A stretch of 64,000 bases of DNA from a virus (lineage: Duplodnaviria > Heunggongvirae > Uroviricota > Caudoviricetes), in IMG/VR virus record IMGVR_UViG_2595698618_000001, positions 15,136 to 79,135 of that record; one strand, given 5' to 3'. A program made the position numbers and the translations under genes. The notes below the pieces were generated by a model, which saw only the letters and a program-made list of their open reading frames with translations, was not told the DNA's origin and did no database searches. Positions within the stretch are counted from its first letter, which is position 1. The number at the start of each line of letters is the position of its first letter. Positions 9,298 to 60,716 of the stretch are shown here, piece after piece.

Positions 9298-10464
9298 ATG
9301 GTTGACTTATCTCGAATTATTGATAAGTTTCCTGAGATTATTCCTCGGGAGAGTAATAGCACTATTGCTCGTTACATCGAGGCGTTTCAGGAAGATACCG
9401 ATGGTCTTGCTGATGACTTAGACGATATTAGAGATAGTCGTTTCATCGACCAAGCAACGGGTGCTGACTTAGACCGTATTGGTCGAATGTATGGTCCTCT
9501 TGGTAGCCGTGCTGGACGAGATGACCAAGAATATCGAACATACCTAAAGTCTCTTGTTCCAGTATTCCAGTACCGAGGTACAGTTCCCGGTATCAGAGCG
9601 GCTGTTGCGGCAGGGCTTGGTATTGAAGATGGTATTAATGGTGGCGGTCCTGCTGACTTAGAAGTTTACGAACACTATAATGACGACCCTGCTAATCAAG
9701 AAGAATATCTTGAATATACCATCATTCTTGACGAGTGGACACCCCACCGAGGTTCTACTATCGAGAATCTTGCGGAATTGTCAGACGCTTCTGTGTCGAG
9801 GTTGCGTAAGACGACTTACAACTTGCCTGAAGAAGAAGCAGGTGTTACTGATGCAGTTAATGTAACTGAAGGTCAAGTTATTACTGATGCGATGAGTGCA
9901 TCTGATGCGAGTTTCGTCAATCCTAATTTGACGACTGTGCCAGATGCCGCGTCTGTTGATGAGCAGGTTTTCGTCAATCCTAATTTGACGACGGTTGCCG
10001 ACGAGTCTGCGGCGTCGGAGGATGTTGTTAAGACTGAGCGTGATGCTGGTAAGGCTCGTTGGGACCAACAGCGTGTGGACTGGGACTTCTTCGAGTGGGC
10101 TGTTATTGAAGAACTTCTACGTACTCACGCTGAGGATGTATCGGTTGATGAGCAGGTTTTCGTCAATCCTAATTTGACGACGGTTGCGGGAGGTACTGGT
10201 GGTAGTTCTGATTCGGTTGCTACTAATCCAAACCTCACGACAACTTCTGACTCTGCATTTGCGGATGATGCGAATGCGGTTGACCCGAACCTTACGACGG
10301 TTGGGGATGATGCGAGTGCTGATGACGCTACAGCCGTTAATCCGAATACTACAACTGTAGCCGAGGATTCGACTGTCACGGAGAATGTCACGACTACGAC
10401 GACTCAAGTGGCGTGGGATTCCGGCAGTTGGGACTCGATGAATTGGGCTGTAGAACACAACTGA
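9298..10464 (+). CDS. Baseplate wedge/tail protein (GpI-like) with ~20-aa (V/T)NPNLTTV repeats
   Basis: ATGADLDRIGRMYG...RDDQEYRTYL; C-terminal half is repetitive. Confidence 0.75.
   Translation: MVDLSRIIDKFPEIIPRESNSTIARYIEAFQEDTDGLADDLDDIRDSRFIDQATGADLDRIGRMYGPLGSRAGRDDQEYRTYLKSLVPVFQYRGTVPGIRAAVAAGLGIEDGINGGGPADLEVYEHYNDDPANQEEYLEYTIILDEWTPHRGSTIENLAELSDASVSRLRKTTYNLPEEEAGVTDAVNVTEGQVITDAMSASDASFVNPNLTTVPDAASVDEQVFVNPNLTTVADESAASEDVVKTERDAGKARWDQQRVDWDFFEWAVIEELLRTHAEDVSVDEQVFVNPNLTTVAGGTGGSSDSVATNPNLTTTSDSAFADDANAVDPNLTTVGDDASADDATAVNPNTTTVAEDSTVTENVTTTTTQVAWDSGSWDSMNWAVEHN
9912..10350 (+). repeat. Imperfect coding repeats (NPNLTT units) with an exact ~39-nt duplication
   Basis: TGAGCAGGTTTTCGTCAATCCTAATTTGACGACGGTTGC occurs at ~9960 and ~10149. 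Confidence 0.85.
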
Positions 10465-13399: not shown

Positions 13400-14223
13400 C
13401 ATTTAATTGGGCATTTACATATGGCTCTCCTCAGGAAGTTGCTGATGCTGGTAATCCTAATGGATATTACTTGTTAGAAACTCCAACAGGGCCGGAAGAA
13501 TTTTACATTAATACTGAAGACCACGGTGACGGTGGATGGGTGTTAGTTTCTAATGTGGATGTTACTGGTGGTAACTATGCCCAAGATAATGGGTATACTG
13601 CACCAAGTGACTTTAATGTTCCACAGAGTAGTGGTGATGTTCAAAGCCAATATACTAATTATGTCGGAACGCAATCAGAAGATGGTGCGTTTATCCAAGT
13701 TGATAACTTCAACGGCGCATCTCCGCCAAGTAATAGTTGGGGTTCTGTTGGTCTTGGTGGTGGCTCTGGAGACTATAAACATATTCGTTCATACCGTCCC
13801 GATACGAAGGGGTATGAGTGGAGTGAAATTAAGTTTAGAGTGAGAAAGAGCGTTGGTAACGACGGATATTCAAATGGTCAAGGTAGAAGCGATTCCAATA
13901 GCGACTATGAGTTATTTGGAAATAGTCTTGACGGTGCAAAGATTATTGCAGGTGAGCCGGGTGACTCAAATGCAGAGCATATCTTTGACGTAATTACGTC
14001 ACAGCAAGATGAGGGTTTAATTAATTATACACGTAATAACTATGATAATCTTCGTGGAGATGGGACGACAAGTATCGGTTTTGTCTCTACGACGCAGACT
14101 TTTGAATTGACACATTCACTCTCATCATCTAATGGTAAGCCACCGTTGTATAATGAGATGACTGACCAAGGTGTTGATGACGAAGGTTCGACTGCTTCAA
14201 AATGGTATATGTGGATTAGATAA
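13396..14223 (+). CDS. Putative adhesin with fibrinogen-related-domain-like N-terminus
   Basis: NGYYLL...EEFYINTEDHGDGGWVLV resembles the FReD GxY...YCDM..DGGGWTLV motif. Confidence 0.5.
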   Translation: MTFNWAFTYGSPQEVADAGNPNGYYLLETPTGPEEFYINTEDHGDGGWVLVSNVDVTGGNYAQDNGYTAPSDFNVPQSSGDVQSQYTNYVGTQSEDGAFIQVDNFNGASPPSNSWGSVGLGGGSGDYKHIRSYRPDTKGYEWSEIKFRVRKSVGNDGYSNGQGRSDSNSDYELFGNSLDGAKIIAGEPGDSNAEHIFDVITSQQDEGLINYTRNNYDNLRGDGTTSIGFVSTTQTFELTHSLSSSNGKPPLYNEMTDQGVDDEGSTASKWYMWIR

Positions 14224-14225
14224 TT

Positions 14226-15062
14226 ATGGCACAAATTGCAACAATTAGACTTCAAACACAGAATAGTGGTATAGTAGATGTTCCAGTATTTGAATTGAGT
14301 GACGTTAATTATCCAGTAGTAAGAGTCCAAACTGCTTCTGGTGTGGGTGCATTGAATTTAGTGGACCCGGTTGACGCTGAACTCGATTACTTACGAGTGC
14401 AAACGGCGTCTGGAGTGAAAGCAGTTAGCAATAGTATTATTCAGATGCTTGACTCGTTCGAGGACGGTGATATTTCTGAATATGGTGGTCAGACTGGTTC
14501 TTTTACAGTTACAACTGGTGCTAATGGAGTGTCACCACCTGTAGGAAATTATATGCTTTACTCTCCTGAGACAGCCCCACGAACGTCTATTATTTCGCGT
14601 ACTGATATTGGTCCATCCCGAGGCGACCATTTCGGTTGCTATGCATATTGGCAGGGTGATAATAATAATGACTTTTGGGGTGGCATTGCTTTTGCAAATG
14701 GTAGTGTTGGAGATAATAGTAACTTTAGCGGTAATACTATTAGGCACGCTGGTAATACTGGCTCAAATCGTAACGAATTGCAAATCAAAGAATGGGACAA
14801 TGGTAGTGAAACAGAAATTGCTGTAACATCTATAGATTGGGGAACATGGAATAATCAATGGCTGTTCCTTGATGTTACATGGGCCAATGACGATACCATT
14901 ACTTGCGACCTTCGTGATGGCGGCCCTGATGGTAGCATTATTGTTACTGTCCAAGGAGTTATAAATCCTGATGACCCGAATGGAGGAATGGGATTCCGAC
15001 AAGACCACGAGAATAATCCATATAATACTTACTTCGACGGGTATCAGATTTTCCCGCAATAA
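14226..15062 (+). CDS. Putative adhesin (N-terminal fibre-binding module plus lectin/ConA-like domain)
   Basis: Repeated VRVQTASGV N-terminus; Trp/Gly/Asn-rich beta-sandwich-like C-terminus. Confidence 0.55.
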   Translation: MAQIATIRLQTQNSGIVDVPVFELSDVNYPVVRVQTASGVGALNLVDPVDAELDYLRVQTASGVKAVSNSIIQMLDSFEDGDISEYGGQTGSFTVTTGANGVSPPVGNYMLYSPETAPRTSIISRTDIGPSRGDHFGCYAYWQGDNNNDFWGGIAFANGSVGDNSNFSGNTIRHAGNTGSNRNELQIKEWDNGSETEIAVTSIDWGTWNNQWLFLDVTWANDDTITCDLRDGGPDGSIIVTVQGVINPDDPNGGMGFRQDHENNPYNTYFDGYQIFPQ

Positions 15063-34090: not shown

Positions 34091-34193
34091 TGGACCGCCC
34101 CGGATTCGAACCGGGAGTTCCTTGCTAATTTGGAGCAGAAGCCGTAACTTCAACTCTTGCAAAGCAAGTGTCTTGCCATTAGACCAGCGGCCC
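34091..34193 (-). tRNA. trnA: tRNA-Ala(TGC) with 31-nt BHB intron (34127..34157)
   Basis: G3:U70; intron at 37/38 with central helix UUUG/CAAA and 3-nt bulges CAA and UUA. Confidence 0.9.
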
Positions 34194-34210: not shown

Positions 34211-34624
34211 CTATGAACTGCTACTACTTAAAGGTTTCGGTTTGATAATTCCATTGTGTAACTTACGATGACAGTTAGCGCAAATGACGACACACTTCTC
34301 CAACTCCTTGTCAATACGCTCATAGGAAGCGTCGTCTGCTCGAAGTTTGGAAATATTATGCTCTTTGTTGTCAACGTGATGCAAGTCGAGCGCACAAGCA
34401 ACATCCTCGTCGCAGTTTATGCACCCACGCTCACTCTTATAAGTATTGATATATTCTGCCTTCTCACGGCGGCGCTTGTTCTCTTGCTCACGTATTTGCT
34501 CTTTTCGGCCCTCCTTAGCGTAGTAATATTGAGTATGATAGGATAGTTCGTCCCATTCCTCTTGTGATTTATCTACGTGGTTTGGGACTTGTTCTTGATA
34601 TTGGTCTTCTTTGAAAGAACCCAT
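34211..34624 (-). CDS. HNH homing endonuclease
   Basis: CINC...LDLHHV...KCVVICANCHRKLH. Confidence 0.85.
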   Translation of the reverse strand: MGSFKEDQYQEQVPNHVDKSQEEWDELSYHTQYYYAKEGRKEQIREQENKRRREKAEYINTYKSERGCINCDEDVACALDLHHVDNKEHNISKLRADDASYERIDKELEKCVVICANCHRKLHNGIIKPKPLSSSSS

Positions 34625-36578: not shown

Positions 36579-36944
36579 TTAGTATTCCAAGTTGGAATGT
36601 TCTTTTCTGTGACAGTTCGCGCAGAGGATGATGCATTTCTCCATCTCCTCCTTAATCGCTTCTTTTGAGTAACCATCGTTCGCCAGTTTAGCCACACTTT
36701 CACTCTTATCATCGTTATGATGATGGAAGTCGAGTGCGGCTGGATGCTCCTCGTCACAGTTGGAACATCCTCGTTCGTGCTTATAGTCGGCTACCCATTG
36801 ACGAAGTTTGGCCTTTCGGTTAGCAATGCGTTCCTTCTCCTCCTCTCTGTTGCGATAGTAGTATCGCATTGAGGGAGCGAGGTCTTCCCATTGCTTTCCA
36901 TCAGGAAGGTCTACGCCTTCCGGTTTGGGCTTCATCTCCGTCAT
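36579..36944 (-). CDS. HNH homing endonuclease (paralog of 34211..34624)
   Basis: CSNC...LDFHHH...KCIILCANCHRKEH; wedged between two tRNAs. Confidence 0.85.
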   Translation of the reverse strand: MTEMKPKPEGVDLPDGKQWEDLAPSMRYYYRNREEEKERIANRKAKLRQWVADYKHERGCSNCDEEHPAALDFHHHNDDKSESVAKLANDGYSKEAIKEEMEKCIILCANCHRKEHSNLEY

Positions 36945-36945
36945 A

Positions 36946-37033
36946 TACTGGCTACGAGATTCGAACTCGTGTCTCGACCTCGAAAGGGTCGAAGGATTGG
37001 CTTAATGCCGTGCGTCCACTACCCCAAGCCAGC
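36946..37033 (-). tRNA. trnE: tRNA-Glu(TTC) with 15-nt D-loop insertion (37001..37015)
   Basis: cgacc-ctTTCga-ggtcg; D-loop GTAGTGG[ACGCACGGCATTAAG]CCAATC. Confidence 0.8.
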
Positions 37034-37169
37034 GCGTTGAATCCCCTTTCGGGGAGGTGTACCGTGAGGCGTCACAGTACGCTGACGATGCACCACGGTC
37101 CCTATAACGAGGGTTGGTTAATCCTGCCTTGTGTGGCTCACGTCAGTTAGGGCAAGTCAGTAGGCCCTA
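37034..37169 (-). ncRNA. Structured ncRNA B (~135 nt)
   Basis: Stems UAGGGC/GCCCUA, CUGACG/CGUCAG, CCCU/AGGG, GUACUGUGA/UCACGGUAC, UCCCC-GAAA-GGGGA. Confidence 0.65.
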
Positions 37170-37240
37170 CGCCGAAGCCGGGTAATGCTCCCGAGTCTCG
37201 TGCGTGACAGGCACGCATCTTACTTTTAGACCACTTCGGC
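37170..37240 (-). tRNA. trnD: tRNA-Asp(GTC) with non-canonical T-loop AGCATTA
   Basis: cgtgc-ctGTCac-gcacg; acceptor GCCGAAG/CTTCGGC; G73. Confidence 0.75.
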
Positions 37241-37272
37241 ACTTCGTATTCTTACTAATGCGCCCCTACTAT

Positions 37273-37863
37273 TTAAATCTTTCGATTTATAGCAAGGTCT
37301 TGGTATCTCCTATCATCAAGAACTGGCAACTCCATCAGGGCAACCTCTGCCCACTCGCGGTATTGTCCATTCTTTCGTGTTCGGTGGAATCCATATTTAT
37401 CAAAGAATGGAATCACTTTCTTAACAATATCTCCATACTTGCTTACTTGAAACACGATACTACCCTTTTCTCCATCTCGGCGGGGAGCATATTGGTGTAT
37501 AGTTCCACAATCTAATGTTTGTTTGAGCATATCAATTGCTTCAGGGTCATCATCCGCTACCGTAACTTGGAACGTGAACCTTTTAGAGCCATTCTCTCGC
37601 TTTCTTATGAATGAACCCTCTCCGGCAACAAAGCCTGCAAGAAAATTACCTCGCTCATCACTAATATCCGAAAGGTCTATCTTGTTGGACGATTCGATTG
37701 ATTCTATTTTGTCGAGGTCATCGTGTTTCTGAAGCCCAAGTCGTGAAGCCTTTGCACGAATTGCTTCAGAACTTCGCCCAAACTCATCAGTTAGGTTATC
37801 GGTATATGTAACTGGATATAATTCTTCGAGTTGAGAAATTTCGTCTTGCGTCCATTTACTCAT
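37273..37863 (-). CDS. LAGLIDADG homing endonuclease with N-terminal HTH
   Basis: NFLAGFVAGEGSF...FQVT...; WTQDE...GRSSEAIRAKASRLGL. Confidence 0.85.
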   Translation of the reverse strand: MSKWTQDEISQLEELYPVTYTDNLTDEFGRSSEAIRAKASRLGLQKHDDLDKIESIESSNKIDLSDISDERGNFLAGFVAGEGSFIRKRENGSKRFTFQVTVADDDPEAIDMLKQTLDCGTIHQYAPRRDGEKGSIVFQVSKYGDIVKKVIPFFDKYGFHRTRKNGQYREWAEVALMELPVLDDRRYQDLAINRKI

Positions 37864-37914
37864 ATGTCACAGTATGGACTACAGGTATTTAAGTGTTTCG
37901 TTTTTGCTGTGACA

Positions 37915-38212
37915 GAATGAAAACCTTACGGGAAAGTAAGGCGGTGGTTCCAGCCCACCAGTAGGCCGCCACCCTACGCCCTTGGCCGAGGACCTTTTAC
38001 GGCGGAGTTTTGTCCTAATTTTTGTGCCAGACACCAGTAGGCCGTGACCCTACACTTGACGATTACCGCCAGAGTTGGTTACACCCTGACTACTGTGCTT
38101 CTCACGAAGCAATCCGCGCCTTAGTTCACTTTCGTACCACGAGGGCACGCACGCTTTACGTGGAGTCTTTCATTCACGGTATCCACGCACCGTTATCCCC
38201 TATAATGGGAGA
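37915..38212 (-). ncRNA. Large structured ncRNA A (~260-nt core)
   Basis: Closing stem GAAUGAAA/UUUCAUUC; at least 7 hairpins incl. a GUGA tetraloop; 22-nt internal repeat. Confidence 0.65.
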
Positions 38213-38213
38213 G

Positions 38214-38285
38214 TGGGCAATGAGAGAATCGAACTCCCTTCTCATCCTTCGCAGGGATGTGTCATATCCAGTAGACCAATCGCCC
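38214..38285 (-). tRNA. trnR: tRNA-Arg(GCG)
   Basis: catcc-ctGCGaa-ggatg. Confidence 0.9.
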
Positions 38286-38314: not shown

Positions 38315-38917
38315 CTACTTAAAGGTTTCGATTTCCTCAATACAATCTCGAAGAACCGCCTCCTTTGACTGATTCGCATCAATTCGTACAATCCGGTCGT
38401 ACCGCTCGTACAAATCCTCATAATTCTCGCGCACGCGCTCTTGGAAACCAGACTCCTGCTCATACTTCTCATCTCCATCAACCCTATCGAAAGACGTACC
38501 AACATCAACGTCAAGCCATAGAGTCAAATCAGGCTCATAATTAAACGGACCCATCACCGACTCAATATACGGCATAACATGACCACGCGGAATACCAGCC
38601 TCCTCCAACGCAATAGACTGATACGCCCTCGTGGAATCCGCATACCTATCCGAAATAACCATCTGTCCCTCCTGAACAGCAGGACGAACACGATTCTCGA
38701 TATGGTGGACCCTATCTCCCATAAAGAAGTAGAAGTCCGTGAGTGGATTCGTGCCGGAGTCTGATTGAAGGCATTTTCGGACTTGTTTGCCGGTCCATAA
38801 ATCGCTTGGCTCGCTGGTCATCATAACGTCGCCGTATTCATTTTCTAAGCCCTCTGCTACGGTCGTAGTACCTGCGCCGTCTACTCCTTCGAGTGTGACG
38901 AATAATCCGTTTCTCAT
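38315..38917 (-). CDS. tmk: Thymidylate (dTMP) kinase
   Basis: FVTLEGVDGAGTTT; EPS; DRVHH; VISDRYADSTRAYQ; PDLTLWLDV. Confidence 0.93.
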   Translation of the reverse strand: MRNGLFVTLEGVDGAGTTTVAEGLENEYGDVMMTSEPSDLWTGKQVRKCLQSDSGTNPLTDFYFFMGDRVHHIENRVRPAVQEGQMVISDRYADSTRAYQSIALEEAGIPRGHVMPYIESVMGPFNYEPDLTLWLDVDVGTSFDRVDGDEKYEQESGFQERVRENYEDLYERYDRIVRIDANQSKEAVLRDCIEEIETFK

Positions 38918-55304: not shown

Positions 55305-55436
55305 TAGCCCCGGTAGGATTCGAACCTACAATCTCTGCTTCCAGATAGCGAAGTAACGCTTCCAATCGCTCCACAAAACGTGGCTGAAATCTCAGAAGCG
55401 ACGTAATAGCGCCTTGAACCATTCGGCCACGGGGCT
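55305..55436 (-). tRNA. tRNA-Gln(CTG)-like gene with 58-nt insertion in the anticodon stem (55350..55407)
   Basis: A1:U72 acceptor AGCCCCG/CGGGGCT; removing the insertion gives ctgct-atCTGga-agcag. Confidence 0.6.
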
Positions 55437-60615: not shown

Positions 60616-60716
60616 AACTACGAGGGAGCCACCCAAGGAAGGACTCGAACCTTCATTCTTTAGAGTTACAGTCTAATGTTGTACCTTGAAGTAACGGTCA
60701 GCCTTCGTCTCGCGTT
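60616..60716 (-). ncRNA. YrlA-like Y RNA candidate #3 with tRNA-like domain
   Basis: 5' stem strand GCGAGACGAAGG; UUACUUCAA; arm UUAGA-cuGUAac-UCUAA; T-arm GAAGG-UUCGAGU-CCUUC; own promoter at ~60735-60755. Confidence 0.65.

Follow-up and report, generated by a model that had tools for sequence, protein, structure and literature searches.

Ornate RNAs in viral tRNA arrays, such as GOLLD and ROOL, are a standing puzzle and have been described from bacterial phages. These RNAs lie near tRNA islands, contain many pseudoknots and have variable linkers that accept insertions (PMC12286853). The manA RNA, which is structured and ~200 nt long, forms RNA-only cages. The raiA RNA acts in trans and combines two pseudoknots and a compact core with variable arms; its ends are joined by a terminal P1 stem, and the partner of its PK1 lies beyond P4-P5 (PMC12968392). 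Theta ribozymes are found directly 3′ of viral tRNA genes (PMC10879173), T-box specifiers favor NNC triplets and T-boxes use a UGGN stretch (10.1101/2020.06.17.157016), and some group I introns carry PD-(D/E)XK or LAGLIDADG ORFs in peripheral loops.

The halovirus HGTV-1, for which a CCA-adding enzyme, RNA ligases and LysRS have been published (PMC8651126), is available as a cultured virus-host pair with Halogranum roseipondis (PMC13532342). We analyzed a 64,000-nt stretch (the window) of a 143,855-bp virus record that matches HGTV-1 and has an array of 35 tRNAs. What is new here is a covariation-supported RNA family in archaeal viruses. We are very confident that both the family and its fold, conserved and with multiple pseudoknots, are real in HGTV-1-like archaeal viruses. 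By context, this RNA is of the same broad kind as GOLLD, ROOL and manA, and it is a member of none of them.

Results

An RNA element between tRNA-Arg(GCG) and tRNA-Asp(GUC)

The putative non-coding RNA gene, as delimited by alignment, segment comparison and homologs, occupies window positions 37915-38212 on the minus strand, which is the strand of all window features given below. The original prediction had described a highly structured RNA that follows tRNA-Arg(GCG) and has no credible ORF. The sequence and all motifs named there are present directly 3′ of this tRNA gene, and only short chance ORFs overlap the element. The tRNA-Arg(GCG) gene (38213-38285) is its constant upstream neighbor, also in the homologous loci, and 3′ processing of this tRNA would create the 5′ end of the RNA. 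On the other side lies a LAGLIDADG endonuclease gene (37273-37863; PF00961, E 4.9e-11), followed by tRNA-Asp(GUC) (37169-37241), which is the usual downstream neighbor and abuts the RNA in L003, L015, L021, L138, L139, L141, and L294. The endonuclease gene is free-standing, outside the RNA and optional, being absent from L011 and from a run X2 contig that joins across its site.

A BRE/TATA motif occurs 37 times in the window versus 1.75 expected. Given this excess, the copy that precedes tRNA-Arg (38316-38330) is a candidate promoter and the probable start of a transcript containing tRNA-Arg and the RNA. The same motif search found another copy (37886-37900) that precedes the LAGLIDADG gene as its own promoter motif. 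The 3′ end of the element (37915-37941) consists of a terminator-like hairpin and a U-rich tail. The RNA is single-copy in the genome. Pfam searches also identified genes for Ro60/TROVE (PF05731, PF25045; 50934-52463) and RtcB (PF01139; 56590-57981) in the window, both on the minus strand.

Other features of these tRNA arrays were noted in passing. A second, different structured spacer RNA (RNA B) lies between tRNA-Asp and tRNA-Glu in the window (37034-37168) and, nearly identical, in L010 (11572-11708); it is not matched by model R1 of the present family and was rejected as a paralog. The gene that ARAGORN calls tRNA-Ala(AGC) (36946-37033) is better read as tRNA-Glu(UUC) with an enlarged D-loop, and similar genes occur in L015 near 12006 and in L139 near 7490. 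A short hairpin motif starting GUGACGCC recurs in tRNA spacers of the window (37060-37080), L002 (near 3320), L010, and L015 (near 12180); L002 carries it without the RNA studied here. Three tRNA-like Rfam matches that ARAGORN did not call (34091-34193, 55305-55436, and 60638-60693) are interrupted or partial tRNA genes. Within the array, two small ORFs (36579-36944 and 34211-34624) resemble each other and share a C-terminal CANCH motif; the former has a weak HNH match (E 0.026). L021 contains an ORF-free, apparently folded 190-nt spacer (9437-9627) between tRNA-Phe and tRNA-Glu.

The RNA is conserved behind tRNA-Arg(GCG) in HGTV-1-like viruses

Using the neighboring thymidylate kinase gene and DNA patterns, we gathered 11 further distinct copies (L003, L004/L008, L007, L010, L011, L015, L021, L138, L139, L141, and L294). 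All are in uncultured HGTV-1-like virus contigs, behind tRNA-Arg(GCG). The RNA is ~298 nt in the window and ~220-300 nt in homologs without inserted ORFs. Identity ranges from ~52 to 88% when the first eleven sequences are aligned, and CM scores of the 12 distinct sequences, including the window, are 93-205 bits. Counts out of 11 given below refer to the window and ten homologs, as L294 came later and was used as a held-out sequence.

The surroundings of the RNA vary. In L141, an inserted LAGLIDADG gene and a new promoter separate it from tRNA-Arg(GCG). Most homologs end flush with tRNA-Asp, while the L008 copy ends at tRNA-Glu and the L007 copy before a promoter. L294 carries tRNA-Arg and the RNA, moved as a unit, at another place and on the other strand. 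With its own promoter in L141, varying 3′ neighbors and this joint relocation, the RNA is independent of its flanks.

Searches further afield yielded no additional members. Under strict filters, model R1 matched none of 151 genomes sampled from the phylum of G001, and the RNA was not found in HCTV-1, HVTV-1, HATV-2, or a complete 110-kb related virus, nor near the thymidylate kinase gene in L002, L012, L018, and L144. BLAST against phages and plasmids gave chance matches only, as did loose patterns in viral and genome contigs, where the best matches fell within protein-coding frames. The family is so far confined to HGTV-1-like haloviruses with large tRNA arrays.

Covariation supports a fold with two pseudoknots

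Folding energy alone does not mark the element as highly structured: its sequence here has a z-score of -1.78, and 7 of 200 shuffles were equally stable. It is covariation in the homologs that bears out this part of the original prediction. In the MAFFT alignment, 90.7% of cells were paired and 19 of 36 pairs showed double changes; none of 500 shuffles did as well. A scan of every pair of columns (5,995) in a 110-column core placed 12 of the top 13 within helices B, PK1, PK2, H, and F, in an alignment that was parsed by hand with some helices known and so favors those helices. The remaining pair is a lone pair between 38153 and 38053, the first base of F, with C-G, A-U, and U-A variants. Thirteen column pairs scored at least 24, compared to a mean of 0.66 and a maximum of 5 when independent columns were simulated on the tree. 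The held-out L294 scored 169.7 bits, kept the helices and added new compensatory changes, some in the 3′ pseudoknot and others at the base of hairpin E. In all, 54 of the 110 core columns never vary, and many of these are unpaired. Compensatory changes thus support five predicted helices, including two pseudoknots that were absent from the original model.

From the 5′ end, the predicted fold begins with a terminal hairpin of variable sequence (A, 38196-38212), identified by segment comparison. It is followed by PK1 (38158-38193), an H-type pseudoknot in which the loop (38182-38188) of stem B (38176-38193) pairs with 38158-38164. Stem B forms in 11/11 sequences at all five pairs, three with double changes, and PK1 in 11/11 at three of five core pairs, with double changes. 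The triplet 38150-38152 within the 5′ strand of PK2 (38150-38153) pairs with positions 38044-38046 in the loop of hairpin F and ranked at the top of the column-pair scan. Between these strands and the center lies hairpin C (38133-38149), which is peripheral and variable: it is longer in L138 and L294, and a PD-(D/E)XK ORF replaces it in L004/L008 and L015.

The central domain (38058-38124), which contains many invariant unpaired bases, is enclosed by helix H (38117-38120 with 38058-38061; 11/11 at all four pairs, three with double changes). Inside are hairpin D (38096-38111), which had been predicted and is real but variable in sequence, and hairpin E (38068-38090), with a 7-nt loop (38076-38082). 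Hairpin F, of 5 bp and a 7-nt loop followed by UGGUG, makes up the first copy of the 22-nt repeat (38032-38053). The UGGU beside F could pair with ACCA in loop E; this pairing is invariant or wobble in the homologs, with no compensatory change. Helix I (38012-38033), read by eye, joins 38030-38033 to a GG(A/G)C strand near 38012-38016, is present in all homologs and shows one-sided changes.

The 3′ domain comes in two forms. In the window, L011, L007, and L010 it is a second module (37943-38005) composed of the strand 38001-38005 and hairpins G (37978-37993), F′ (37961-37977), and J (37943-37959); the loop of F′, the second repeat copy, pairs with 38001-38005, and UGGUG is present in this module too. 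The other eight homologs have instead a single H-type pseudoknot with covarying strands. Hairpin J had been part of the original prediction and, read by eye, is kept in L007 and L010. The terminator-like hairpin K (37924-37941; 37915-37941 with the U-rich tail), also predicted there, is kept with a compensatory change in L011.

For the most part, the secondary structure proposed originally is incorrect. No stem closes the RNA from one end to the other: two hairpins lie upstream of the supposed closing strand, which is an A-rich linker inside PK1, and the closing stem forms at 8/8 pairs here and 7/8 in L011 but at best 4-6/8 in the other nine sequences. Each strand of the CACG/CGUG hairpin and of AGGAC/GUCCU has a different, better supported partner. 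The best supported pseudoknots also differ from those proposed. CGUGCC/GGCGCG pairs at 6/6 here and 1-4/6 elsewhere, GAACUA/UAGUC is consistent at only 3 bp, without compensatory change, and from GGCGG/CCGCC only the involvement of GGCGG, in the loop of the second repeat copy, has survived.

The internal repeat is a duplicated hairpin module

The two repeat copies (37956-37977 and 38032-38053) had been located correctly; they are identical at 20 of 22 positions and are the sole matches to the repeat in the window at up to three mismatches. The repeat exceeds chance, as none of 100 shuffles gave two matches. Since the two positions at which the copies differ pair with two different triplets, the repeat represents a duplicated structural module. 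For the same reason, a CRISPR-type repeat or an insertion scar was rejected: the mismatches coincide exactly with the triplet pairing. The two F hairpins are widely different in L007 and L010 and nearly identical in the window and L011, where the copies have probably been homogenized within the lineage.

Across 15 F-type loops, U at position 2, C at position 5, and a purine at position 6 are found in 15/15, and G at position 7 in 14/15. The consensus is R/U-U-N-N-C-R-G, of which three bases pair with a triplet that starts with G. The natural variants of the RNA include two alternative 3′ domains, ORF insertions, and five different triplet pairings.

Endonuclease genes interrupt the RNA at peripheral sites

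PD-(D/E)XK ORFs of the PF11645 family interrupt the RNA in three cases. The ORFs in L004/L008 and L015 are located at hairpin C and are 50% identical, and the ORF in L010 is at another site and 34% identical. Since there are two sites, with ORFs that are 34% identical across them, at least two insertion events took place. All of these ORFs end on a UAA that is conserved in the RNA, and none disrupts the pseudoknot strands. By eye, a bulge-helix-bulge at the inserted ORF is partial in L015 and was not seen in L008. In our reading, the ORFs homed to a conserved target, of which only the periphery can accommodate them. Counting adjoining genes, an endonuclease gene is inside or next to the RNA in five of 12 sequences (window, L008, L010, L015, and L141) and in none of the other seven. 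Comparable ORFs are scattered through the tRNA arrays of these viruses. In L010, for example, a tRNA-Asn gene (13971-14528) has a 411-nt intron that contains a PD-(D/E)XK endonuclease ORF.

Comparison with known RNA families

The Rfam cmscan suggested with the original prediction found no family for the RNA: for the window, the element and five homologous loci, it returned only tRNAs and chance matches (E up to 10 for the element). Single-family searches gave no match to RF00028, raiA, manA, RF00373, T-box, or GOLLD. The family is absent from Rfam 15. A comparison of homologs had also been suggested, and covariation was present. Both the covariation among the 11 homologs and the lack of Rfam matches thus uphold the claim of a conserved, structured non-coding RNA of no known class. 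No such RNA appears in the 2026 HGTV-1 paper, and we did not find the family in the literature searched; an earlier automatic listing is possible, for example among the 10,000 candidate viral RNAs of PMC10690425.

The likeness to GOLLD and ROOL suggested in the original prediction applies to the context and not to membership. The conserved 3′ domain of GOLLD (RF02032) was unmatched, and ROOL (RF03087) gave no match in the all-family cmscan, the RNA being less than half as long as its model. Unlike GOLLD and ROOL, which are bacterial and mostly >400-800 nt, this RNA is short and belongs to archaeal viruses. Similarly, manA (RF01745) was unmatched at E up to 10. The raiA motif (RF03072) was unmatched in either direction; it is similar in size and in its two pseudoknots, compact core and variable arms, and shares short look-alike words, but here PK1 is a local H-type pseudoknot and there is no terminal P1 or other closing stem.

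Catalytic RNAs and tRNA-related RNAs were also considered. As a group I intron, the element failed on several grounds. RF00028 was unmatched at E up to 10, in the homologs as well. The strand after the would-be P7, which in P3 should pair upstream, pairs downstream in 11/11 with double changes, whereas the upstream pairing reaches only 1-4/6 in homologs. The G of the guanosine site is missing in L008, L015, L010, and L138, with only 3 bp consistent. There is no P4-P6, no exons and no element-less allele was seen; and although ORFs in peripheral loops are a shared feature, the order of helices differs. Archaeal RNase P was rejected because RF00373 was unmatched while controls were detected, and CR-I, CR-V, and the bulged-U P4 are absent from the alignment. 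The RNA resembles T-boxes in the NNC triplet and purine of its loop and in its UGGN stretch, but RF00230, with its Stem I and antiterminator, was unmatched, and the candidate tRNA-reading stretches are both paired internally. Cis control of the T-box kind was likewise discarded, since the RNA is followed by a tRNA gene, a terminator-like hairpin or a new promoter and there is no regulated gene. ARAGORN finds no tmRNA, and the invariant UAA lies 33-76 nt from PK1, in all three frames. Like theta ribozymes, the RNA is directly 3′ of a viral tRNA gene; in contrast to them, Rfam found no HDV-like fold, nor any other small self-cleaving ribozyme, and the RNA is detached from the tRNA in L141. Likenesses to the SRP Alu domain, the FMN riboswitch T-loop, the lariat-capping ribozyme, pistol and RNase P P15 are contradicted by the covarying helices.

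Discussion

The RNA is conserved, has a fixed place behind tRNA-Arg(GCG) and a covarying multi-pseudoknot fold, contains a duplicated hairpin module, and tolerates ORFs only at its periphery. As to its function, our proposal is tentative, and taken as a whole, mechanism included, we give it somewhat less than an even chance: a compact, stand-alone RNA of a new family that is matured by tRNA processing and has modules resembling an anticodon arm, through which it imitates or binds tRNA. Archaeal tRNAs are processed by tRNase Z and RNase P. On that basis, the RNA would be co-transcribed with tRNAs, its 5′ end would be freed by tRNase Z and its 3′ end would be released by RNase P or the terminator. 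Acting in trans, the RNA would be a compact particle that imitates tRNA or binds it, and its terminal hairpin and pseudoknot may protect it. For the tRNA-reading factors of the host (anticodon nucleases, tRNA-sensing defense, or the ribosome), such a particle could be a decoy or a scaffold, and it could work alongside the viral tRNA supply and RNA-repair genes. The Ro60 and RtcB genes of the window and the tRNA enzymes published for HGTV-1 agree with such a role.

The likeness to tRNA is centered on hairpin F, which has the geometry of an anticodon arm: 5 bp, a 7-nt loop, an invariant U at position 2, three paired bases, and a purine. The loop is held in a 3-bp helix like that of codon and anticodon, with the ACCA loop beside it. 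As a post-hoc pattern on a 7-nt loop, this is only suggestive. Unlike tRNA, the RNA has no T-loop, D-loop, or acceptor stem, and positions 1 and 7 of loop F are purines, unlike those of real anticodon loops. Loops with a U-turn and three exposed bases often mediate kissing or pseudoknot contacts that have no role for tRNA.

A rival reading is an RNA-only assembly, a dimer or cage like those of GOLLD, ROOL, and manA, in which the likeness to tRNA would be incidental and some short pairings (the 3-bp PK2, ACCA/UGGU, or the lone pair) would form between copies. GOLLD and ROOL, also located near viral tRNA islands, have kissing loops that join copies, one of these having been predicted at first as a tertiary pair (PMC12286853), and manA, at <200 nt, forms cages (10.64898/2026.07.01.735769). 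Covariation is blind to whether a pairing is intra- or intermolecular, and the F module is duplicated in four sequences (window, L011, L007, and L010). We nonetheless regard an assembly as unlikely, as GOLLD and manA were unmatched, cmscan gave no match, and a 430-nt ORF within the protomer would need to be accommodated. It is improbable, in our estimate, that the RNA is instead a T-box-like sensor acting in trans, with loop F as a specifier (NNC and purine) that would exchange its weak internal triplet partner for the anticodon loop of a G34 tRNA, while UGGU would capture NCCA ends. Both F-type loops of the RNA in the window can pair at 7/7 positions, counting one G-U per loop, with viral anticodon loops, those of tRNA-His and tRNA-Gly(GCC), and the other eight testable cases reach 5-7/7; the next-best chance matches of the model are antisense anticodon arms; and the preferences of T-boxes for NNC and UGGN are as cited above. 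NNC and a purine are found in 15/15 F-type loops, and this pattern is the reverse complement of G34 anticodon loops. Most of the complementarity is, however, an automatic consequence of the fixed pattern; the one informative position pairs in only five of 10 cases. The internal partner also covaries perfectly, loop F and UGGU would, from tRNA geometry, be too close for one tRNA to contact both, and the failed T-box search and the missing regulated gene count here as well. Extended to a virus-encoded reader, the same idea would have the codon of the F modules and UGGU, held by built-in mimics, capture specific G34 tRNAs or their anticodon-cleaved forms and shield them or hand them to Ro60/RtcB repair. 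We consider this quite doubtful. Its targets, if it is true, would be His and Gly here and Asp, Arg, or Cys in relatives; to our knowledge, no tRNA-reader RNA of this kind exists in archaea or archaeal viruses.

The invariance of the core, including so many unpaired bases, could also point to a ribozyme for viral tRNA processing, whether rearranged group I-like, reduced RNase P-like, or of a new class. As in group I introns, peripheral loops contain ORFs (here of PF11645, at two sites), and a 3-bp YUA/UAG followed by helix H and hairpin D would give the order P7/P3/P8 if circularly permuted. This too has a low probability: RF00028, RF00373, and all ribozyme families were unmatched; the guanosine-site G is lost in the four sequences named above and helix H pairs downstream rather than upstream; P4-P6, exons, an element-less allele and the RNase P regions CR-I and CR-V are lacking; and such ORFs also adjoin many tRNA genes in these viruses. 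Very improbable is a mobile or selfish RNA-endonuclease element of the HEARO or omega-RNA type, or a leader that controls the LAGLIDADG gene. Five of 12 sequences do associate the RNA with an endonuclease gene, but seven do not, the enzymes belong to three Pfam families in four places, and a single-copy RNA constantly behind tRNA-Arg(GCG) does not resemble a mobile one. The LAGLIDADG gene, for its part, has its own promoter motif after the terminator-like hairpin, which argues against a leader.

Our preferred reading, a compact trans-acting RNA that imitates or binds tRNA, is open to experiment. Since the family is present in a cultured virus-host pair, the expression, partners, and structure of the RNA are directly testable; it is small enough for cryo-EM, and its natural variants are ready-made mutants. 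The RNA may bear on why these viruses carry at least 30 tRNAs together with an RNA-repair kit.
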